The position numbers were made by a program, and so were the translations under genes. From an uncultured Flavobacteriales bacterium (GTDB lineage Bacteria > Bacteroidota > Bacteroidia > Flavobacteriales > UBA7430), in assembly GCA_943789355.1 (NCBI GenBank), contig CALSTU010000001.1, forward strand, positions 107,118 to 171,117: a stretch of 64,000 nt of DNA. Direction: 5' to 3'. Positions 2,979 to 59,900 of this stretch are shown here, piece after piece; the stretch's first letter is position 1, and each line of letters begins with the position of its first letter. The notes under the pieces are model-generated. The model saw only the letters and a list, made by a program, of their open reading frames with translations, was not told the DNA's origin and ran no database searches.

Positions 2979-3833
2979 ATGAAACTTTTCAACAACAAAT
3001 TCATCTTATTTTTCAACTTAAATCTACTTTTCTTTACACCTATCTATTCCCAAGAAAGACGTAATCCAATTGTTGATCCGCTTAAATATATACCCACACT
3101 CACCTTTCAAGAAGGAGGATTCTTAAAGACCTCTGAAAAAAACTTCCCTATTTCAATAAATTTCAACACCCATCAGGATGCCAATGGAGATGGAAATTTG
3201 GATCCTGAAGACAATATAGAGAACATGATTCTGTATGCTATTGGAGAAGCTGTTAAAGGAAACGGAAGAACAGGTTTAAGTAATAGAGGTCCTAACAACC
3301 AGTCTCCAGCTGTTTATTTTAATTATGCCGAAACATTTAGCCACAACGTATACCAATATTGGTATTACTACGGAGAAAATTCTCATTTAGAAAATCATGA
3401 ACACGATTGGGAGTCTGTTTTTGTTTTTGAAAGAGATACACTTCCCGTCATGGTTCAAATGACCTCTTTTGGAAAATTAACCAATCTTCAATGGAATGCA
3501 TTTCAAAAAGATGAAGAACATCTAGTTTTGGGTGTTCGACGAGGTGATCACTCTTTCACCACCTCCCCAAAAAATGGAGTTGTCATCAGGTACAACGGTG
3601 AGATTCATGCGCAACAAGGTGTTTTAAACGAAGGGCACGGCAAAATGATACCTTGGACGGTATATAGCTCTAAAGATTTCACAACAAACACCACTGTATT
3701 TGATGAAGGTAAGACCACAAAATTTTATTACGGTGATGTTGCTTATCCGAGAAGTGGTAAAGAGTTTGATTCGGAAAGAAAAGCCCCTTGGCGAAGAAGG
3801 CGTTGGAGAAGACCTAGAAAAAATGATGAATAA
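2979..3833 (+). CDS. Secreted NPP1/NLP-like (necrosis-inducing protein family) protein with an Arg/Trp-rich C-terminal tail
   Basis: Signal peptide MKLFNNKFILFFNLNLLFFTPIYSQ. The stretch YQYWYYYGENSHLENHEHDWESVFVF matches the NLP pattern of an aromatic-rich strand followed by the GHRHDWE heptapeptide (here HEHDWE at nt 3396-3413). The tail is KAPWRRRRWRRPRKNDE. Confidence 0.55.
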   Translation: MKLFNNKFILFFNLNLLFFTPIYSQERRNPIVDPLKYIPTLTFQEGGFLKTSEKNFPISINFNTHQDANGDGNLDPEDNIENMILYAIGEAVKGNGRTGLSNRGPNNQSPAVYFNYAETFSHNVYQYWYYYGENSHLENHEHDWESVFVFERDTLPVMVQMTSFGKLTNLQWNAFQKDEEHLVLGVRRGDHSFTTSPKNGVVIRYNGEIHAQQGVLNEGHGKMIPWTVYSSKDFTTNTTVFDEGKTTKFYYGDVAYPRSGKEFDSERKAPWRRRRWRRPRKNDE

Positions 3834-8569: not shown

Positions 8570-9841
8570 ATGAACAAAATCGTTTATAATTTAGTTTTTT
8601 TCTGTTTGTTTTTCCTGCTTCTTGACCTCTATTTCTGGCAGGCGCTGAAGAGTAATTTTTTACTCAACTTTAAATCAAACCAACTCGCTAAATTCATCTA
8701 CTGGGTCCTCTCCTTTTCGGCTTTATCCATCTTGATTTATGCGATGATAAATTACCAAAATCCGGAATCCTCAAAACATCTAATTCTCATAAGAGCCTTT
8801 ATATTTAGCCTTTACATGGCTAAATTCTTAGCCTGCTTCCCGCTTCTCATAGACGATTTGATTCGGTTGTTTAAATGGATTGCCTCTTTCATTCAAATTT
8901 CTAACACATCCACGCCACAAAAAGAATCCCAAGGGATTTCAAGATCGAGTTTTTTAAAAAACACAAGCTTTATCATCGCTTCATTTGTGTTTGGGGTAAT
9001 GTCTTGGGGTATTATTTACGGGAGGTTTAATTTTAAAAAACATAAAGTAGCGATTAAATTGGACAAGTGGCCAAAGGCATTAAGTGGATTGAAAATCATT
9101 CAAATATCTGACTTACACTTGGGTAGTTTCGACTCAACCAAACCCATAGAAGATGTTGTAGAAATCATCAATAATGAGCAGGCTGATATCATCGTATTTA
9201 CAGGAGATCTTGTTAATAACGCCTATTGGGAAGCGGATGAATTTATCCCGTACTTAAATAAACTGAAAGCTAAGTACGGTAAATATGCAGTCCTTGGTAA
9301 TCACGATTACGGTGATTATTTAGGGATTGATAAAAACTCCGTCAAAGGATTGAGTTTGTGGAAATCAAACTTCAACAAAATATTGAATGTTTATAAAAAA
9401 ATTGGCTTCGATTTACTTCTAAATGAAAACAGAGAAATTGAAATTATGGGCAGCAGTTTCAATCTTATCGGAGTAGAAAACTGGGGTGCTGGAAGCTTTT
9501 CCAAATATGGTGATTTTAATAAGTCTATTGAAGGGTTAAATGCTGACAAGTGTAATATACTTCTTTCACACGACCCCTCCCATTGGGATAATGAGGTCAT
9601 GAAACATCCTTACCCAATTGAATTGCAACTCTCTGGACACACTCATGGTATGCAGTTTGGGATAGAGCTCAAAAATTTCAAGTGGAGTCCGGCTCAATTA
9701 AGGTACCCTCAGTGGGCAGGTTTGTATTCTAAGGGAAACAAACACGTATACGTAAATCGAGGTTTAGGACACATTGGATATGCGGGACGAATTGGAATTT
9801 ACCCAGAGATATCCATCTTGAAAATTTACAACAAAGCCTAA
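8570..9841 (+). CDS. Membrane-anchored metallophosphoesterase
   Basis: Several N-terminal TM helices. Calcineurin-like motifs are present: QISDLHLG, TGDLVNN, GNHDYG, SGHTHG. Confidence 0.9.
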   Translation: MNKIVYNLVFFCLFFLLLDLYFWQALKSNFLLNFKSNQLAKFIYWVLSFSALSILIYAMINYQNPESSKHLILIRAFIFSLYMAKFLACFPLLIDDLIRLFKWIASFIQISNTSTPQKESQGISRSSFLKNTSFIIASFVFGVMSWGIIYGRFNFKKHKVAIKLDKWPKALSGLKIIQISDLHLGSFDSTKPIEDVVEIINNEQADIIVFTGDLVNNAYWEADEFIPYLNKLKAKYGKYAVLGNHDYGDYLGIDKNSVKGLSLWKSNFNKILNVYKKIGFDLLLNENREIEIMGSSFNLIGVENWGAGSFSKYGDFNKSIEGLNADKCNILLSHDPSHWDNEVMKHPYPIELQLSGHTHGMQFGIELKNFKWSPAQLRYPQWAGLYSKGNKHVYVNRGLGHIGYAGRIGIYPEISILKIYNKA

Positions 9842-45481: not shown

Positions 45482-46918
45482 ATGAAAAATACACCTGAAC
45501 TCGTATGGGGAAATTGCTTGACTTTTATAAAGGATAACATCTCTGAACAAAGTTTTAAAACTTGGTTTTTACCAATTCAGCCGATCAAACTTAAAGGGCG
45601 TACGCTCAACATCCAAGTTCCAAGTAAATTTTTCTACGAATGGATTGAGGAACACTACATCAAATTACTAAAAACTGCAGTAGGAAAAGAGCTTGGAGAA
45701 GAAGCTAAATTAGTGTACACCATCGTAATGGAAAACACGTACGGAAATAGCAATCCTTATACAGTAAAGATACCCAGCAACAACAGACCTCCTATAAACA
45801 ACCCCAAAGTAGCAGTTCCAGTTGAAATTGCAGCTGCCGGTGTGAAAAACCCATTTGTAATTCCTGGGCTAAAGAAGGTTAATATAGAATCGCAATTAAA
45901 CCCTAATTACAGCTTTGAAAACTTTATTGAGGGAGATTGCAATCGATTGGCTCGCTCAGCAAGTTACGCTGTAGGTAACAATCCTGGAGGTACCTCCTTC
46001 AATCCATTGCTATTATATGGAGGAGTTGGACTGGGAAAAACTCACTTGGCCCATGCGATAGGTATTGAAATTAAAGACAGTTACCCTGACAAAACGGTGC
46101 TTTATGTTTCTGCCGAAAAATTTACACAACAATTTATTGACTCTATAAGAAACAACACCAGAAATGACTTTGTTCATTTCTATCAAATGATTGATGTCTT
46201 GATTATTGATGATGTCCAATTTTTTGCTGGAAAAGAAAAAACACAAGACGTTTTCTTCCACATATTCAATCACCTTCATCAGCAAGGCAAGCAGCTTATT
46301 CTTACATCGGACAGAGCGCCTGTTGACCTTCAAGGTATGGAGCAAAGGTTGCTTTCTCGATTTAAATGGGGCCTCTCAGCAGACCTACAAACACCAAGTC
46401 TGCAAACAAGAATAACCATTCTAAAGAAAAAACTATACACTGACGGCATTGAAATGCCAGAAGATGTTATTGAGTATCTTGCGTATAGCATTACATCAAA
46501 TGTTCGCGAACTAGAGGGCGCTCTAATATCTCTTCTAGCTCAATCTTCATTGAACAAGAGAGATATTAATTTGAGTCTTGCAAAAGAAATGATTGACCGC
46601 TTTGTGAAAAACACAACTCGAGAAGTTTCTATAGACTACATTCAGAAAGTTATTTGCGATTACTTTGACCTAAGCTTAGAAGTTTTAAACTCGAAAACAA
46701 GAAAGAGACGTATCGTTCAAGCAAGACAACTGGCTATGTTCTTCTCTAAGAAACTAACCAAATCTTCATTGGCTAGCATAGGAGCTCAGTGTGGAGGAAA
46801 AGATCACGCTACAGTACTTCATGCCTGTAAAACGGTAAACAATCTTGTAGACACTGATAAACAATTTCGATCCTACGTTGACGATCTTAGTAAAAAATTA
46901 GAACTACAACAACTCTAA
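45482..46918 (+). CDS. dnaA: Chromosomal replication initiator DnaA
   Basis: Walker A GGVGLGKTHL, the box VII and sensor region, and a C-terminal DNA-binding region (GGKDHATVLHA). Confidence 0.98.
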   Translation: MKNTPELVWGNCLTFIKDNISEQSFKTWFLPIQPIKLKGRTLNIQVPSKFFYEWIEEHYIKLLKTAVGKELGEEAKLVYTIVMENTYGNSNPYTVKIPSNNRPPINNPKVAVPVEIAAAGVKNPFVIPGLKKVNIESQLNPNYSFENFIEGDCNRLARSASYAVGNNPGGTSFNPLLLYGGVGLGKTHLAHAIGIEIKDSYPDKTVLYVSAEKFTQQFIDSIRNNTRNDFVHFYQMIDVLIIDDVQFFAGKEKTQDVFFHIFNHLHQQGKQLILTSDRAPVDLQGMEQRLLSRFKWGLSADLQTPSLQTRITILKKKLYTDGIEMPEDVIEYLAYSITSNVRELEGALISLLAQSSLNKRDINLSLAKEMIDRFVKNTTREVSIDYIQKVICDYFDLSLEVLNSKTRKRRIVQARQLAMFFSKKLTKSSLASIGAQCGGKDHATVLHACKTVNNLVDTDKQFRSYVDDLSKKLELQQL

Positions 46919-53576: not shown

Positions 53577-54212
53577 ATGGATTACTTGTTTTTTTTATGT
53601 GCCTATTTAATTGGATCAATTCCCAGTTCAGTGTGGATAGGGAAAAAATTCTACGACATTGATGTGCGCGAACACGGAAGTGGTAATGCCGGTGCAACAA
53701 ATAGTTTTAGAATTTTAGGTAAACGTGTTGGCAGCATCGTTTTATTCATAGACATTTTCAAAGCCTGGTTCTCAACCTATGCATTGAGCTACATAGCAAA
53801 CGACCAATCGATTGAAAACATGTTAGGACTCGGAATGGTTGCTGTACTTGGACATATCTTCCCGGTATACATTGGCTTTAGAGGAGGCAAAGGAATTGCA
53901 AGTTTGCTTGGCGTGATCATTGCCGTACAACCAGTGGCAGCACTTTTTTCCATCATTGCATTTCTTACATCACTTGTTTTAAGTCGATATGTATCTTTAA
54001 GTTCCATCCTTGCTGCTTGTACATTTCCTTCCACCATCATCTTTTATATAAACAGTGACAACAATGCGCTCATATCATTTTCTATCATGGTGTGTATTCT
54101 TGTTCTTTTTACTCACAAAAAGAATATTGATCGACTCTTTAAAAGAGAAGAATCTAAAGTAAATCTTCCGAAGAAAATTTTCAAAAGAAAATTAAAAAGA
54201 AAGCGAAATTAA
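53577..54212 (+). CDS. plsY: Glycerol-3-phosphate acyltransferase PlsY
   Basis: YLIGSIPSS, GSGNAGATN, and FRGGKG. The start is set at MDYLFF...; the upstream part of the ORF-track ORF has no PlsY-like sequence. The C-terminal tail is Lys/Arg-rich. Confidence 0.92.
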   Translation: MDYLFFLCAYLIGSIPSSVWIGKKFYDIDVREHGSGNAGATNSFRILGKRVGSIVLFIDIFKAWFSTYALSYIANDQSIENMLGLGMVAVLGHIFPVYIGFRGGKGIASLLGVIIAVQPVAALFSIIAFLTSLVLSRYVSLSSILAACTFPSTIIFYINSDNNALISFSIMVCILVLFTHKKNIDRLFKREESKVNLPKKIFKRKLKRKRN

Positions 54213-54246
54213 ATTTTACTTACCCTGTAAATTTCAAAAGCTTTCC

Positions 54247-54254
54247 TATATTTG
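54247..54254 (+). promoter_or_regulatory. -7 box (TATATTTG) for tRNA-Arg
   Basis: Exact TAnnTTTG match ending 15 nt before the mature tRNA 5' end. Confidence 0.55.
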
Positions 54255-54269
54255 CATCCGTATTAAAAT

Positions 54270-54343
54270 GGCCCCGTAGCTCAACTGGATAGAGTATCAC
54301 ACTACGAATGTGACGGTTGCAGGTTCGAATCTTGCCGGGGTCA
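54270..54343 (+). tRNA. tRNA-Arg (anticodon ACG)
   Basis: Hand-folded cloverleaf: acceptor ggccccg/cggggtc, D arm gctc-aactggata-gagt, anticodon arm tcaca-ctACGaa-tgtga, variable loop cggtt, T arm gcagg-ttcgaat-cttgc, discriminator A. No encoded CCA. Confidence 0.93.
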
Positions 54344-54349
54344 CTCAAG

Positions 54350-54389
54350 CGGAGAATTGGTTAACAAAAACCAAATCTCCGTTTTTTTT
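54350..54389 (+). terminator. Intrinsic terminator after tRNA-Arg
   Basis: cggagaattggtt / aaccaaatctccg stem with one mismatch, followed by T8. Confidence 0.85.
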
Positions 54390-54683
54390 ATTCCCCTCAA
54401 CTTATTTACTATTTCACATACAAGAAAAGACAGAATTCAAGCTTCTGATACGAATTTATCATTTGACTGTCTTGAACAAATCCAGACGGAAATACTAAAT
54501 TTTGAATTTTCATTTATTGACCTAAATCCTAAAAAGACTATGTCTTATTGAGATTTGATGATTATAACAAATTTAGTTTTGATTAAATTGGTTTGTTGTT
54601 GGGAATGAGCAACACATAAACCAAACAAATATTATTTTTCTAGATAACTATTGTGACTTTTCTTTAGGTTGAGCATTTTCATT

Positions 54684-55415
54684 TTAATGAGGCTTAACAT
54701 TTACGTATAATGTGTCAGCATTTATACCGGTAAATATTCCAAACGCATTTTCAAGCTCAGTCGGTGGGTTCGTAATATTTTGTGAAGTGTCATCACTATC
54801 TTCATAAAGTACTGCTAAATCAGGATTTATATGAAATAATATGATTCGATGTTTACCATAATATGAAAAACGCCTAGTATTCATTGAATAATAATCTGAT
54901 TGAGTTGGCGCTAAATTAAACGATTGATTAATAGATGACACATTGCTGTTATCATAAATTGAAGTAGGGTTTGACTCCATGTTTTCTATCAATAAAAAGT
55001 AGTATGAGCCATCTGTATTATCCCAGGAAAGTTCTAATGCATCGGGATCATTGCCTGTAAAGACATCATCGCTAACTTTAACAATAGAATCAGATAAATA
55101 TAAGTTCACTGGTTTTTCAGGCACAGTTGTTATGGATGAAACTAGCAAATTGTTGTAGAAGAATTCAAGTTCAAAAGTACTATATTCAGTAATATCAATA
55201 TTAGAGTGTGTATATTTACCATCACCTATTGAAATAAGGTCATAATAGAAATTTCCATCAAAAACTCTCACAGATAACGAATCTAAATTATCTGACGAAT
55301 TTACCGCATTGTTTGAGTAAAGAACCTGCCGTGAAATTTTAATTTCTAGTGGTTGACCAGCAAAAAGATATCCTTCAACAACCGGTATATCTTCAAAATC
55401 TGGGTTGATATTTTC
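54684..55415 (-). pseudogene. DUF4249-like lipoprotein gene lacking its 5' end (no signal peptide, no ATG)
   Basis: The frame stays open upstream of the ORF-track GTG (55271): ...ENINPDFEDIPVVEGYLFAGQPLEIKISRQVLYS...SLSVRVFDGNFYYDL..GDGKYTH. It runs back to an in-frame stop at 55416-55418. The VVEG...P..I.IS / V.V.D....Y.L...GDG.Y pattern is typical of DUF4249. Confidence 0.5.
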
Positions 55416-56066
55416 TTAAGTACGATTATTACCTTCTCAACGATCAGGCGTAAAAGAGAACAAGCCGAGGCAGAGGCGAAAATTGCAAGACATGAAGCTG
55501 AATCTAAGTTTCTTCGGTCACAGATTAATCCTCATTTTATGTTCAATAATCTCAATAACATTTACACCTTGGCTCAGCTAAAATCAGATAAAACTCCTGA
55601 TGCAATACTTCGCTTGTCTGACTTATTGAGGTATGTACTTTACGATTCTGAGAGGAAAATTGTGAATCTATCGCAAGAATTAGATTATTTAAGTCAGTTC
55701 ATAGACTTAAGTCTACTCAAAGATGAAGATCGAACGAATGTCAAAGTCGATCTAAAGCCATGTCAATCAGATTTACAAATTGCACCTTTAATTCTCATTC
55801 CCTTTGTGGAAAATGCATTTAAACACAGTAACGTTGAGGACAAGCAAGATGGGTTTATTCATATCTCCTCATCTTGTCATGAAACCCGAATTACTTTGGT
55901 CATCGAAAATTCCGTATCGAAAGAAGAACAAAAAAACCATATATCAGGAGTAGGCCTCGAAAATGTAAAACGTAGATTGGATTTAATATACCCTAATAAA
56001 CATGTATTAAATGTGATTAAATCGGAAGATAAATACCATGTTTCACTTGAAATTGAATTGGTATGA
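55353..56066 (+). CDS. LytS/YehU-type histidine kinase, cytoplasmic part only (apparently 5'-truncated; only a TTG start)
   Basis: QINPHFMFNNLNNIY (His_kinase domain) plus a GHKL ATPase region (IPFVENAFKHS ... GVGLENVKRRL). The usual N-terminal multi-TM sensor is absent. The first ~64 nt are antisense to the DUF4249-like frame. Confidence 0.6.
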   Translation: MTSKKISFNNRYIFKIWVDIFLSTIITFSTIRRKREQAEAEAKIARHEAESKFLRSQINPHFMFNNLNNIYTLAQLKSDKTPDAILRLSDLLRYVLYDSERKIVNLSQELDYLSQFIDLSLLKDEDRTNVKVDLKPCQSDLQIAPLILIPFVENAFKHSNVEDKQDGFIHISSSCHETRITLVIENSVSKEEQKNHISGVGLENVKRRLDLIYPNKHVLNVIKSEDKYHVSLEIELV

Positions 56067-56737
56067 AATTTCGATGCCTAATTGTAGATGACGAACAGTT
56101 AGCCCGGGAGCTAATTGAAATGTACTGTAATAAAACGCCAGGATTAGAGGTGGTTGGATTATGCAAAAACACTCAAGAAGCCATGGCAGTGATGAGCAAA
56201 GAGAAAATTGACATTCTCTTTTTAGACATCCAAATGCCTGACTTAAGTGGTGTTGATTTCGCTAAAACACTGATAGATAGTCCAAATATCATTTTCACCA
56301 CAGCATATAATAACTACGCGATAGATGGATTTGAACTAGATGCAGTTGACTATCTGTTAAAACCAATTGCATACAATCGATTTTTAAAGGCAATTCAAAA
56401 GGTAAGCCTTCGATCTCCAAAAAAAACCTCAAATACTCACATACATATAAAAGCTGATCACAAAGTTCATAGGATAAAATTCAACGATATATTATACATT
56501 GAAGGTTTAAGGGAATATGTGACTATTTACACCAAAGAGAAAAAATTAATTACCCTCGAATCATTAAAAAAACTTGAAGAGATTTTACCATCAAGTTTCA
56601 AAAGAGTTCATAAATCATTCATTGTAAATACCAAATTCATAGACTCTATATGGGGCAACCAGCTGGAGGTAGGTAAGACCAAAATACCTATTGGTAAAAG
56701 TTATAAGAAAGTAGTTTTAAAATTATTCGAAAATTAA
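56063..56737 (+). CDS. LytTR-family response regulator
   Basis: Receiver domain (LIVDDE, LFLDIQMPDLSG, KP) plus a LytTR DNA-binding domain. ATGA overlap with the kinase stop. Confidence 0.93.
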   Translation: MKFRCLIVDDEQLARELIEMYCNKTPGLEVVGLCKNTQEAMAVMSKEKIDILFLDIQMPDLSGVDFAKTLIDSPNIIFTTAYNNYAIDGFELDAVDYLLKPIAYNRFLKAIQKVSLRSPKKTSNTHIHIKADHKVHRIKFNDILYIEGLREYVTIYTKEKKLITLESLKKLEEILPSSFKRVHKSFIVNTKFIDSIWGNQLEVGKTKIPIGKSYKKVVLKLFEN

Positions 56738-56972
56738 TAAGTTCGAAAAAATCATTTTTTTTGAAAAAGTTCAAACCGATAATTTCAAAAAAGTATTGTT
56801 CCATGTTCTATTATTAAATAGATGAAGTATTAAACATGACAATTTAACACAAGGCTACCTTGATGATCTCAAACAATCACATGTATTTAATGCCATGAAG
56901 TGTTACATATAAATTGGTGCTTTTTCAACACAGTCTTTACCCTTTCAATACCAAATATCCAAACTCATACGA

Positions 56973-59900
56973 TTAATCATTTGGTAAATATTTCAGAACA
57001 TCTTCATTTAAAACCTTTATTTGATACCCGCGACTCGGATGCATATCACCAATACCATTAAAGCCCATTGACGGAAGATATGCAGAACCTGAATAATCTT
57101 TAACAATCACTAAGTTTCCTAAGTCATTAATGTCTGAGAATACAGATGCAGCATCAGATGGCCCCAATTTTAAGTAACCTATCAAATTCCAGCCCGGACT
57201 TAATGTTATTGGATAATCATTTGGGATGGCGTAATCTCCAAATATCTCTAGAGATGCTTCAGTAGTAGTTTTTATCTGGTAGCCTTGACCCACTTGAAGA
57301 TCACCCACACCATTAAAGTTCCACTCTTTCAAATAAGCAGCCCCATTGAAGTCCTTAATGATGATTACATCATCAACTATTGGAGATACTACAGATGCCA
57401 GATCCATGTCTTCTGCAATCATGTAGGTAGAAAACATAGACCAACCAATTGGAATAGCAATCATCTGTCTCGTGGGACTGAGCTGATCGAAACCCTGATC
57501 GTTTGCAGCATTAGGACTTCCATTCACATTGATACAAGCCCAACTTTCGGGCAAATCGTTGTCTAAGTCGGGTGAAACTAATTCTAATGTGTAACCTGTT
57601 TCGTCTGCACAGATTGGCCAAGGATTTACAGATTGATAGTCTACAATGTCTTGTAAGGTTCCATTTTGATTATAAAGCCGAACAGCATCGGAGCCTCCAT
57701 AACCAAAGTTCAAATCTCCTACATACGGAATACCTGGTAAAACAGACCTGAAATCAGTTTCTTTTTTAACAATCACAAGGTAGCCTTCAGCATCAATTTT
57801 CGTTCCATCAGGAATTACAAAAACATGCGTATCGTCATCATCTTTTATTTGCCAGTTAGAAACGTCTATTGAAGATGTATTTGGGTTATAGAGTTCAATC
57901 CAATCGTCTGCGTCAAATGTGGCAATAGATTTGTAATTGATCTCGTTAATTACAAGAGGATATGTTGTTTCTGTGGGAGTGAAATTGGGAATGACTTCAA
58001 AAGATTCCGTAAGTAATACTTCTATGGTTTTATCGATGGAATATAAGTCCCCGCTCCAATGAGAAAATTCGTATCCAAACGCTGCTGTTGCCATTAACTT
58101 TACAGGTACGGTTTCAAAATAATCACCCGTCCAGGTTTCATCTTGAATATTCAGATTTTCATTAACCTCAACGAAACCTTGTTTGATGTCAGGGTTTGTA
58201 ATGGCAAGTGGATGGAAGTTTGGGAGATTAAATTGCTGCTTGATATGTTCTTTAGCAATGGGATGCCTGTTAGTCCCAAAACTTTTCATGTTGGTTACAT
58301 AATAATCAACATGCGCGTTGATGTCGGTTATTTCATAACCTAACAAAGGATCATCTTTCCAGCGAGTGTAATGCGTAAGCACTTCGGGTTCAATCGTTGA
58401 GTAAATTTGATCAATATGATTGATCACATTGTCTGGTAAAAACCGAGTATTTAATTCATCAGCATAGCGATTAATGAACTGATTTCTAAACCCATTATTT
58501 GCAATCAGCTTTCTAAATAATAACGTTGACCAAGGTGGGTTTGGCCATCCTGGCCCATTGGGATTTAAAGCGAAGCTAAGGGTGTTATCATAATGGTTGG
58601 AAATATTCCAAAACGGCCCAAAACCAAAATCAGTATCGTACATAATCCAACGCCATTTGGTGTCTGGGTGTTTCCAAAACTTAATATTGTTTCCTGGCCA
58701 ATCCTGATTGTTTATAAATATATTCGTTGCTTGGTAAAGTGTGTAATTTTTAAGATCTATTCTATCCTTGATGAATTCAAAATTAGAATCCTCTGATAAA
58801 TCTGTATTTTCAATGTAGGCGATTAGCTCATTATATTCATCATTACTCCCCTCTATAACTTCTGCATTATTGGTCAAAAGTGTAATACTTTCAGCATCAA
58901 CATTGTGTTTAGAGGCCAACATATGCTCGTTAATCTTTTCACGCATGTTGTACATTCCCCAATAGGCTCCATTAATGTATGTGGCAACAGGATTGTGGTC
59001 TTGAAAATCCAAATCCGACCCGCGCATTAGGCTGGTGATCATGATATCCTTCATGCTCGACCTCATCCAATCTTGACCAGAATTCCTAAGGGTAAACGCC
59101 TCAAAGTCGTTGTAAGCTACGTTATCAAAAAAAGAGTGTTCAAATTTTGAATCGCCGTATTGTCCCCTTGCAAAAAATGAAAGTGAGCGTTGACTGTTTT
59201 GACCCCTACTCCAGCCTCCAAAAATCTTAACTCCTGCATTAAACTCAACAAATTCATCATTGTCATTTTCATAAAACGAAAAGTGAACTGGACGCTCCCA
59301 ATCTTCCCAGAAATTTGCACCAAAATAAGGTACGTCGGTCTGATAAGTTCCCTCGGGACCAAAAACATAAATTCCAGAATCTTCGTCAAAAAAATCAATC
59401 GGATCAACACTTAACAGCAAAACATCAATCTCATGATTAGAATCAAAAATGTAGGACTCAGTGAAAACTGGTGAGGGCAGATAATTATCTGAATATATTT
59501 GGGCTCTAACGCTTAGATTGGTTGAAATTTGAATCGGAGATGTATAAATCTGTGACAATGCGTTAGGGGCACTTCCATCTGTCGTGTAACGAATTAGCTG
59601 AGAAAAATCATTTCCTGAAAGAGAAAGATTTACAGGGGCATCTTTAAAACCTCCATTTTCAGAAAAAACAAGCTCATTTTGAACTGTTCCCAAGAATTCT
59701 TCGTCAGCATTTTGATCGGCGGGGGTCGTTTCTATATAATTAACCATGTTTCCAGAAGTGTTTGACACTCCAATTGATACATCTGGTGGTAATCCTTCAA
59801 TTAATAATTGATCAATAATGTTTCCTAAATTATCTGAAAGCGTTAGGGTTTCTGCATTCTTTGAAATTTTAAAATTTGTATGAAAGGTGTTTTTTTCGTT

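Follow-up and report, generated by a model that had tools for sequence, protein, structure and literature searches.

Lipoproteins of the DUF4249 family are putative lids of TonB-dependent transporters, or TBDTs, with which they are cofit (Price et al., bioRxiv 10.1101/2023.03.17.533168; PMC11003636). The described module is BT2172/BT2173 of Bacteroides thetaiotaomicron, in which a DUF4249 "lid" lipoprotein accompanies a TonB-dependent transporter of non-SusC type (bioRxiv 10.1101/2023.03.17.533168; PMC11003636). The same arrangement is found in relatives of the DNA considered here, where a DUF4249-like gene with a lipoprotein signal lies directly downstream of a TBDT gene with CarboxypepD_reg and Plug domains. 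The window, i.e., the whole 64-kb stretch of uncultured Flavobacteriales DNA that was analyzed, differs: only codons 24–266 of the lid gene are left, the transporter is gone, and the lid fragment has no Pfam DUF4249 match.

A second comparison is with the LytS/YehU(BtsS)–LytR/BtsR systems. As in those systems, a PF06580 kinase with an NPHF motif is followed by an overlapping regulator with Response_reg and LytTR domains, for which BtsR is the best NCBIfam match (141.6 bits, below the cut-off of 246). The difference lies in the sensor. The kinase of the intact relative has an N-terminus of ~130 residues with four transmembrane (TM) segments and no 5TMR_LYT or GAF match. That is, it is of a compact Bacteroidota type, not LytS/BtsS proper, and the window has lost even that sensor.

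The third comparison is with bacterial deletions at short homologies. In the classic lacI deletion studies, spontaneous deletions reportedly fell between direct repeats of a few bases and were ascribed to RecA-independent slippage or illegitimate recombination. The anatomy at the present locus is the same: 7-nt same-strand repeats kilobases apart, one copy left, no filler, and collinear flanks. There is no anatomical difference, and slippage and break repair are not separable by sequence alone. The best explanation of the locus is, with high confidence, a single recent microhomology-mediated deletion of ~5.2 kb, to which we attribute two dead stumps and an orphaned regulator. It is a real but ordinary gene loss, by an ordinary microhomology-mediated deletion.

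Two truncated genes and their intact relatives

The DUF4249-like lipoprotein remnant occupies 54684–55417 on the minus strand, as defined by translation and comparison with relatives (the end of the frame can also be given as 55415/17). It keeps codons 24–266 and the stop codon. The lost codons, 1–23, include the start, the signal peptide, and the lipobox Cys; in P0254, the closest intact relative, they encode MMKNMKAFQIIAIALLMITGCSK. The minus-strand frame reads ...NNRT*ENINPDFEDIPVVEGYLFAGQPLEIKISRQ..., and translation bears out the claim of an earlier note that it runs into an in-frame TAA at 55416–55418 without a start codon, signal peptide, or lipobox. For this gene, the ORF list gives only a GTG ORF at 54684–55271 (195 aa). 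P0254 (locus L071), a DUF4249 protein of 266 aa, has a lipobox, and L071 is 89.6% identical to the window over 1,105 nt. Since the alignment of this ~90% relative extends from window position 55417 to 54313, the relative also has the conserved left flank, a tRNA-Arg (ACG) gene placed by ARAGORN at 54270–54344 on the plus strand, convergent with the remnant.

The DUF4249-like label used in the earlier note stands through a relative and not through the fragment itself. A Pfam DUF4249 (PF14054) search of the window fragment gave no match even at E ≤ 10, nor did one of P0254, an intact 90% relative. P0001, which is 78% identical to the fragment, reaches 40.9 bits, above the cut-off of 28.5, and many homologues are precomputed as PF14054 or carry the DUF4249 name. 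As far as sequence goes, then, the fragment belongs to DUF4249 by transitive homology only, via P0001, and the gene product is a putative lid of a TonB-dependent transporter.

On the plus strand, the kinase ORF extends from a TTG at 55353 to 56066 (237 aa) and lacks an N-terminal sensor. PF06580 His_kinase matches residues 49–125 of the ORF (78.1 bits, cut-off 25.2), and the QINPHFMFN motif with the conserved His is retained. The GHKL ATPase model, HATPase_c_5, scores 17.4 bits, below the cut-off of 22; the intact relatives P0122 and P0249 score just as weakly, so this is a trait of the subfamily rather than decay. P0249, encoded at locus L065, is an intact kinase of 341 aa with hydrophobic segments at residues 13–31, 41–59, 69–87, and 113–131. 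From 55411 onward, L065 is 98.9% identical to the window in DNA, and P0249 and the window agree in all 217 C-terminal residues. The PF06580 remnant proper is therefore 55411–56066, i.e., residues 125–341 of the intact allele. The 124 missing codons cover TM1–3 and two thirds of TM4, and the promoter and the GTG start are gone too. What is retained is the final 7 residues of TM4 as predicted (113–131), the His dimerization domain, and the putative GHKL ATPase region.

These comparisons agree with the earlier description of a kinase that has only a TTG and no N-terminal multi-TM sensor, and they adjust three of its details. Native kinase sequence does begin inside the ORF, not at ~55419 but already at 55411, where nucleotide homology to the intact kinases of L065, L012, and L066 starts (also given as 55411/13). 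The beginning of the ORF is indeed antisense to the DUF4249-like gene, over 58 nt (55353–55410) rather than ~64, and this spurious 5′ extension is not native kinase. The LytS/YehU-type assignment holds for the PF06580 core; the N-terminus is a 4-TM one instead of the 5TMR_LYT sensor of that type, as P0249 has no such Pfam match.

Could both genes be complete as they stand, with DUF4249-like proteins that start at ENINPDF and kinases that are soluble and sensor-less? A few PF06580 matches of 224–254 aa are listed, on contigs of 1.7–2.2 kb, the ends of which may cut them. The 100–120 closest kinases are mostly 327–390 aa long. The closest have TM segments, the 98.9%-identical allele with its four predicted TM helices among them. 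Twenty DUF4249-like relatives, 260–289 aa in length, all have the N-terminus M..(signal)..GCSK|ENINPDF. Among 19 aligned close relatives, a signal peptide and lipobox precede ENINPDF, typically as ...LLIISGC|SKENINPDF, with Cys at the lipobox position in at least 90%. Together with the antisense origin of the first 58 nt of the kinase ORF, this leaves natural short forms with almost no credibility.

The junction and the direct repeat

The two remnants meet at 55411–55417, where the window has a single copy of TTTTCTT that is homologous to both parental sequences. The junction was compared base by base with L013, L066, L006, and L004 on the DUF4249 side and with L065, L066, and L012 on the kinase side. 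Nucleotide homology of the DUF4249 side to L013, L006, L004, L066, and L071 stops at 55417/18. The relative L066 has TTTTCTT at both ends of the deletion, at 3768–3774 and 9008–9014; the word is also present in L013, L071, L006, and L004 on the DUF4249 side and in L065 and L012 on the kinase side. There is no filler DNA, and the lack of any intergenic or promoter space between the stumps, which had been noted earlier, is confirmed. The probability of an overlap of 7 nt or more at a random junction is 0.0012.

The TAA at 55416–55418 is explained most simply as the Leu codon TTA of the kinase read in antisense. L013 has a TAA at the same codon behind an intact signal peptide, and if an L013-type TAA allele was ancestral, the repeat is 8 nt long (TTTTCTTA, to 55418). 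A nonsense mutation inherited with L013 was considered and rejected, as follows. L071, 99.8% identical to L013, has AAA at that codon; a dN/dS of 0.12 indicates that selection acted on the gene during most of the divergence; and the kinase natively reads TTC TTA AGT at the junction point.

A clean cut of two genes at exactly one point, with intergenic DNA absent and a short, low-complexity, T-rich word at the join, could also be expected of an assembler that joined two unrelated contig ends. The 237-aa junction ORF is found exactly in 33 contigs and with 1–2 substitutions in ~40 more (~73 in all, from NCBI, ENA, Logan, and JGI). The three junction contigs examined, 84–210 kb in length, are named in the style of SPAdes (NODE_) and MEGAHIT (k141_); the longest contig listed is 1.1 Mb. 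At the nucleotide level, loci L001–L003 are 99.96–100% identical to the window over 54201–56800, across the junction. In addition, a 7-nt repeat is far smaller than assembler k-mer sizes. With four sources, two naming schemes, and three loci matched in DNA, the assembly join that the earlier note had offered as an alternative is refuted, and we regard a chimera as practically out of the question.

Undeleted relatives and the proposed deletion

The locus was aligned with relatives, as the earlier note had proposed, and the probable ancestral arrangement is seen in L066, L068, and L069. In L066, a 75–80% relative, both flanks are collinear and co-oriented with the window (L066 3063–3774 corresponds to window 54706–55417, and L066 9008–10341 to window 55411–56744), with 5,240 bp extra between them. 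The genes of L066 are those for a DUF4249 protein (261 aa), a TBDT (971 aa), a DUF4890 protein (121 aa), a Por_Secre_tail protein (350 aa), and the kinase (340 aa). The extra 5,240 bp hold the 5′ end of the lipoprotein gene, the TBDT gene, the DUF4890 gene, the gene with the T9SS tail, a divergent promoter region, and kinase codons 1–124. The layout of L068 and L069 is the same. This collinearity, the single 7-nt repeat copy, and the intact kinase allele at 98.9% identity bear out the deletion-scar reading of the earlier note.

We propose the following event. In the orientation of the window, the ancestral order would have been tRNA-Arg (+), the DUF4249 lid lipoprotein (−), a BT2172-type TBDT (−), the DUF4890 gene (−), another gene for an exported protein (−), a divergent promoter region, the 4-TM PF06580 kinase (+), and the LytTR regulator (+). 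Illegitimate recombination or replication slippage would have acted between two same-strand copies of TTTTCTT, one at lipoprotein codon 23/24, in antisense, and the other at kinase codon 124/125, removing all DNA between them. As read from the sequence, the lipoprotein gene is left without a start, signal peptide, lipobox, or transporter partner, and the kinase gene without a promoter, start codon, or membrane sensor. We infer that both stumps are pseudogenes.

The earlier observation that the DUF4249-like gene lacks an adjacent TonB-dependent receptor is confirmed: tblastn with the TBDT of the module found no homologue in the 64-kb window. A homologue of the partner transporter is found in L004, L013, L066, and nearly all of 47 GTDB loci, and in L013 the C-terminus of the transporter lies directly upstream of the DUF4249 gene. 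Judging from these relatives, the missing transporter would have lain inside the deleted segment. An 822-aa TonB receptor at 60947–63415 was considered as a displaced partner and set aside, as tblastn shows no similarity to the transporters of the module.

The undeleted layout is seen in one piece only in the 75–80% relatives. In the nearest lineages, each side has its own short contigs (L013 and L071, 1.4–2.1 kb; L065, 1.45 kb), and the linkage between the DUF4249 side of L013/L071 and the kinase side of L065 is inferred. L013 and L065 come from the same sample; that they are one genome is doubtful, given a dS from the window of 0.36 vs 0.045, and this unequal distance suggests that they may be different genomes or have been affected by recombination. 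The gene that diverges from the kinase in L065 starts with MKKNVFIKREFLNV... and is unlike the Por_Secre_tail gene of L066, so L066 does not give the exact content and size of the segment deleted from the ancestor. A long contig of the intact allele was sought by scanning JGI metagenomes with the kinase N-terminus and with a 30-nt DNA word of the intact allele, and neither scan returned anything. A protein search with the L013 transporter fragment gave no close full-length relative, and the species of the window is not among the genomes of the GTDB scan.

The separation of the two sides in the closest lineages leaves some room for a more complex rearrangement (an inversion, a translocation, or two steps) that would have left the missing halves at other places in the genome. 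Among relatives, the kinase/regulator pair lies upstream of, downstream of, or divergent from the transporter/DUF4249 pair, and the genes beyond the module are not alike in L066 and the window. As the flanks are collinear and co-oriented with L066, L068, and L069, a single deletion suffices, and one repeat copy without filler is what marks a deletion. Nothing of the transporter, the DUF4890 gene, or the kinase N-terminus turned up in the 64-kb window, although a reciprocal inversion junction could lie outside it. We consider a complex rearrangement very unlikely.

Recency, the kinase stump, and the probably orphaned regulator

The single deletion appears to be young. With an intact 341-aa kinase allele at 98.9% DNA identity, the loss is recent (dS below 0.05; for the kinase, window vs L065, dS is 0.045 and dN is 0), and carriers of the deletion are at least 99.9% identical over 8.7 kb. 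The DUF4249 comparison of the window with L013 gives the dN/dS of 0.12 cited above at the dS of 0.36, and the 21 changes on the window branch are split 4/2/15 by codon position, which indicates that the gene was under selection until recently. The transporter/lid module seems to have undergone three other independent inactivations in close relatives. The present loss is probably one of several such inactivations in the clade, and their repetition makes the module look dispensable in this habitat. L072, considered as an independently decayed kinase, was discarded: every gene is fragmented in that pilon-polished contig, which is thus probably an error-rich long-read assembly.

The LytTR-type response regulator at 56063–56737 on the plus strand is intact, as the earlier note had stated. 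It is full-length, with Response_reg at residues 6–112 (79.8 bits) and LytTR at 134–221 (67.8 bits), its start overlaps the kinase stop (ATGA), and it is 76% identical to the regulator at the same position in L066. It is probably orphaned, having lost the input of its cognate kinase. Its likely target operon has probably been lost as well, since kinase/regulator pairs often adjoin transporter/DUF4249 pairs across Bacteroidota. Among the 47 GTDB loci that pair a TBDT with DUF4249, a PF06580 kinase and a LytTR regulator both occur within 10 kb in 17, and the regulator alone in another 3. By gene neighborhood alone, this suggests that the kinase/regulator pair controls the transporter operon.

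Given a real deletion, the kinase stump might nevertheless be alive. Translation could begin at the TTG at 55353 or elsewhere, and the product, sensor-less and possibly membrane-anchored, could constitutively phosphorylate the LytTR regulator. Isolated cytoplasmic histidine kinase cores are often active in vitro. The ORF keeps the QINPHF motif with the phospho-acceptor His and the putative ATPase region, and its stop still overlaps the start of the regulator. The chimeric N-terminus, IFKIWVDIFLSTIITFSTI, reaches a 19-residue hydropathy of 1.65, which would suffice for a single TM helix. Compared with the intact allele, the stump shows 0 nonsynonymous and 6 synonymous changes, a count that recency explains equally well. 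Against translation of a live stump, the stump has lost its native promoter region and start codon, and the likely target operon of the regulator is gone. The plus strand has no TAnnTTTG (the Bacteroidota-type −7 box) at 54582–56063, and sigma-70-like sites are no commoner than in shuffles (9 vs 13.3 expected); with the −7 box at chance frequency overall, both counts are uninformative on transcription. Finally, L66I, S87Y, and R100S segregate in the 217-codon stump in a population that is at least 99.9% identical, though these are few counts from uneven sampling. A live stump is, on balance, unlikely.

In its fullest form, this alternative is that the deletion made a new working gene, the TTG 55353 product of which has a new single membrane anchor and keeps the regulator constitutively phosphorylated. 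The anchor may consist of 20 antisense-lipoprotein residues and 11 residues that survive from the TM4 region (FLSTIITFSTI). We think this quite unlikely; if true, a sensor-less kinase would rewire whatever else the LytTR regulator controls.

Under the preferred reading, a single recent deletion with dead stumps, the segments at 54684–55271 and 55353–56066 are to be annotated as pseudogene fragments of one deletion rather than as a 195-aa hypothetical protein and a 237-aa kinase, and the LytTR regulator is to be flagged as orphaned. The deletion removed an outer-membrane uptake system and left the stumps of a headless lid lipoprotein and a sensor kinase. The gene loss is recent, nearly fixed, and cleanly resolved, in an abundant uncultured Flavobacteriales population where the undeleted kinase allele is still detectable. 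The most useful by-product is the neighborhood tie between compact PF06580/LytTR systems and BT2172/DUF4249-type transporters. It suggests a candidate regulator for this transporter family.

The junction and the deletion

The minus-strand DUF4249 gene and the plus-strand kinase gene meet at 55411–55417, a join that the earlier note had read either as the scar of a deletion or rearrangement or as an assembly artefact. The artefact is contradicted by the records: the 237-aa ORF spanning the junction recurs as an exact copy on 33 contigs, and its one- or two-substitution variants on 14, 8, 6, 6, 5 and 1 further contigs, from NCBI, ENA, Logan and JGI and reaching 1.1 Mb in length. The three contigs fetched with this ORF include both NODE_ and k141_ names. 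L001–L003, loci carrying the same deletion, match the window through the junction, at 99.96–100% identity over 54201–56800 and 99.92–99.99% over 8.7 kb.

Nucleotide homology on the DUF4249 side stops at 55417/18 (L013, 90.7%; L071, 89.6%; L006, 83%; L004, 81%; L066, 76%), and that on the kinase side starts at 55411 (L065, 98.9%; L066, 80%; L012, 79%). In the window's orientation, DUF4249 relatives read ...GGGTTGATATTTTCTT[T/A]TGAACAC..., kinase relatives ...CAC[T/C]CTTTTCTTAAG..., and the window ...GGGTTGATATTTTCTTAAGTACG.... TTTTCTT (55411–55417) is common to both parental sequences, and filler DNA is absent. At least 7 shared bases occurred in 0.12% of random junctions simulated between both gene regions of L066.

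Three undeleted relatives, L066, L068 and L069, have kinases about 75% identical to the window's and a common layout: minus-strand genes for a DUF4249-like protein (261 aa), a TonB-dependent transporter (971 aa), a DUF4890 protein (121 aa) and a Por_Secre_tail protein (350 aa), followed by a plus-strand kinase (340 aa) and LytTR response regulator (225 aa). The window's population also occurs in the sample behind one of these three contigs. Both flanks of L066 are collinear and co-oriented with the window's, and 5,240 bp separate its two repeat copies; a single deletion between the repeats of an L066-like layout would yield the window arrangement exactly. With collinear flanks, the shared TTTTCTT and no filler, the scar is borne out as a deletion: the finding is real and, as the alignments read, its interpretation right. 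The event is a textbook short-repeat deletion, an ordinary gene loss that will not surprise a specialist.

Closer relatives fill in each side. The transporter's C-terminus adjoins the DUF4249 gene on the upstream side in L013, and L071 has an intact 266-aa DUF4249 gene with the window's tRNA-Arg flank after it. In L065, 227 nt of upstream sequence separate the intact kinase gene from a divergent gene beginning MKKNVFIKREFLNV...; this gene bears no likeness to L066's Por_Secre_tail gene, so that L066 is not an exact guide to what the direct ancestor lost.

Directly downstream of the regulator, the window carries a gene for a 1,258-aa secreted protein (56973–60749, minus strand; CotH kinase, two Lamin-tail (LTD), CHB_HEX_C and Fn3-associated domains), whereas L066 has a NERD-domain gene there, so that the six-gene module alone is shared and the surroundings differ. 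On the other side, a Bacteroidota-type -7 promoter box, TATATTTG (54247–54254), lies 16 nt upstream of tRNA-Arg (54270–54344), which is followed by a hairpin and T-run (about 54346–54390) that the terminator scan did not list. The window lies near the probable replication origin, given dnaA at 45482–46918 (plus strand; 90% cluster named chromosomal replication initiator protein DnaA). Among the NCBI members of this DnaA cluster are entries labelled Flavobacteriales bacterium, in line with an uncultured member of that order as the source.

The two remnants and the regulator

The DUF4249 frame reads ...NNRT*ENINPDFEDIPVVEGYLFAGQPLEIKISRQ..., with an in-frame TAA at 55416–55418, and, as the earlier note had stated, translating the window's minus strand reveals neither start codon nor signal peptide nor lipobox ahead of it. 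Its sole ORF-list entry is a GTG ORF at 54684–55271. Close homologues (260–289 aa) all have M..(hydrophobic)..GCSK directly before ENINPDF, so 23 codons are gone from the window, comprising the start, signal peptide and lipobox Cys. PF14054 does not match the window's fragment itself, which is assigned to DUF4249 because of a 78%-identical relative. Since the stump can be neither exported nor lipidated and is without its partner, it is, judged by sequence, a pseudogene. The TAA is most simply read as the kinase's Leu codon TTA (F-L-S = TTC TTA AGT) on the other strand. The DUF4249 gene of L013 (1234–2031; about 90% identity) retains signal peptide and lipobox and then has a TAA at codon 23, the very codon that forms the window's "stop"; L071, 99.8% identical to L013, has AAA. 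The L013 TAA looks like an independent nonsense mutation, but its position coincides with that of the window's.

The kinase ORF (55353–56066, plus strand) has only a TTG start and carries PF06580 (His_kinase) at residues 49–125, and the domain search found no sensor domain in it; the regulator (56063–56737, plus strand), whose start overlaps the kinase stop, is intact, with both Response_reg and LytTR domains. ORF list and domain search thus agree with what had been claimed. The closest kinase homologues are mostly 327–390 aa. P0249, the 341-aa kinase of L065, shares the window ORF's 90% cluster and is identical to it over the final 217 residues; it has four hydrophobic segments (13–31, 41–59, 69–87 and 113–131), and the window kinase opens at its residue 125, within the fourth. 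The earlier label "LytS/YehU-type" holds for the catalytic core (PF06580, paired with a LytTR regulator whose top NCBIfam match, BtsR, scores under its cut-off) but not for the sensor, which in the intact relative is a compact 4-TM region with no Pfam match to 5TMR_LYT.

The kinase stump is without its native promoter and start codon. No Bacteroidota-type -7 box occurs on the plus strand at 54582–56063, and sigma-70-like matches near the stump are no more frequent than chance. We rate the stump a pseudogene; translation from the TTG is a much less likely reading. In hydropathy, the chimeric N-terminus would suffice for a single TM helix. Within the population the stump carries three amino-acid variants, too few for relaxed selection to be diagnosed. 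In one assembly from JGI that represents this population (P0282/P0255; 59,531-nt contig), the regulator has a frameshifted tail (187 aa, ...LKNLKRFYHQVSKEFINHSL) and the DUF4249 stump, too, differs near its end; this is either sequencing error or the first sign that the orphaned regulator is decaying.

Timing and independent damage

Between the window and L013, the DUF4249 remnant has dS 0.36, dN 0.044 and dN/dS 0.12, with no indels, and of the 21 changes placed on the window branch, 4, 2 and 15 are at first, second and third codon positions; purifying selection therefore acted during nearly all of this divergence. The kinase differs from that of L065 by six synonymous and no nonsynonymous changes (dS 0.045), and thus the deletion is younger than this split of about 1%. 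It predates the diversification of the present population (differences at most 0.1%).

The module is damaged in other close relatives too, independently of the window. In L006 (3010–4816) and L007, the transporter is cut to its C-terminal 335 residues beside a DUF4249 gene that is intact, and a gene for a group II intron reverse transcriptase lies downstream. In L014–L017, a frameshift near codon 95 disrupts the DUF4249 gene, and the transporter survives only as degraded fragments.

The lost module and its possible regulation

A role as lids for non-SusC TonB-dependent transporters has been proposed for DUF4249 lipoproteins; BT2173 shows cofitness with BT2172, and conservation of this pair extends across genera (bioRxiv 10.1101/2023.03.17.533168; PMC11003636). 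Our GTDB scan (L018–L064) covered representatives only, the window's species not being among them, and found a DUF4249 relative at 47 loci, nearly all adjoined by a BT2172-type transporter. A PF06580 kinase and LytTR regulator lie within 10 kb in 17 of the 47, across Bacteroidota, and a regulator only in 3 more; the pairs stand upstream, downstream or divergent. Such proximity makes the two-component system a likely candidate for control of the transporter operon. In the literature, we found no statement linking compact PF06580/LytTR pairs to BT2172-type transporters.

The finding is useful for annotation and a tidy case of recent module loss. If this control holds, one deletion took out sensor, shared promoter region and regulated operon together, and the surviving LytTR regulator is a leftover. 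More broadly, the compact 4-TM PF06580 kinase and its LytTR partner may be an unrecognised regulator of the BT2172-type transporter family.
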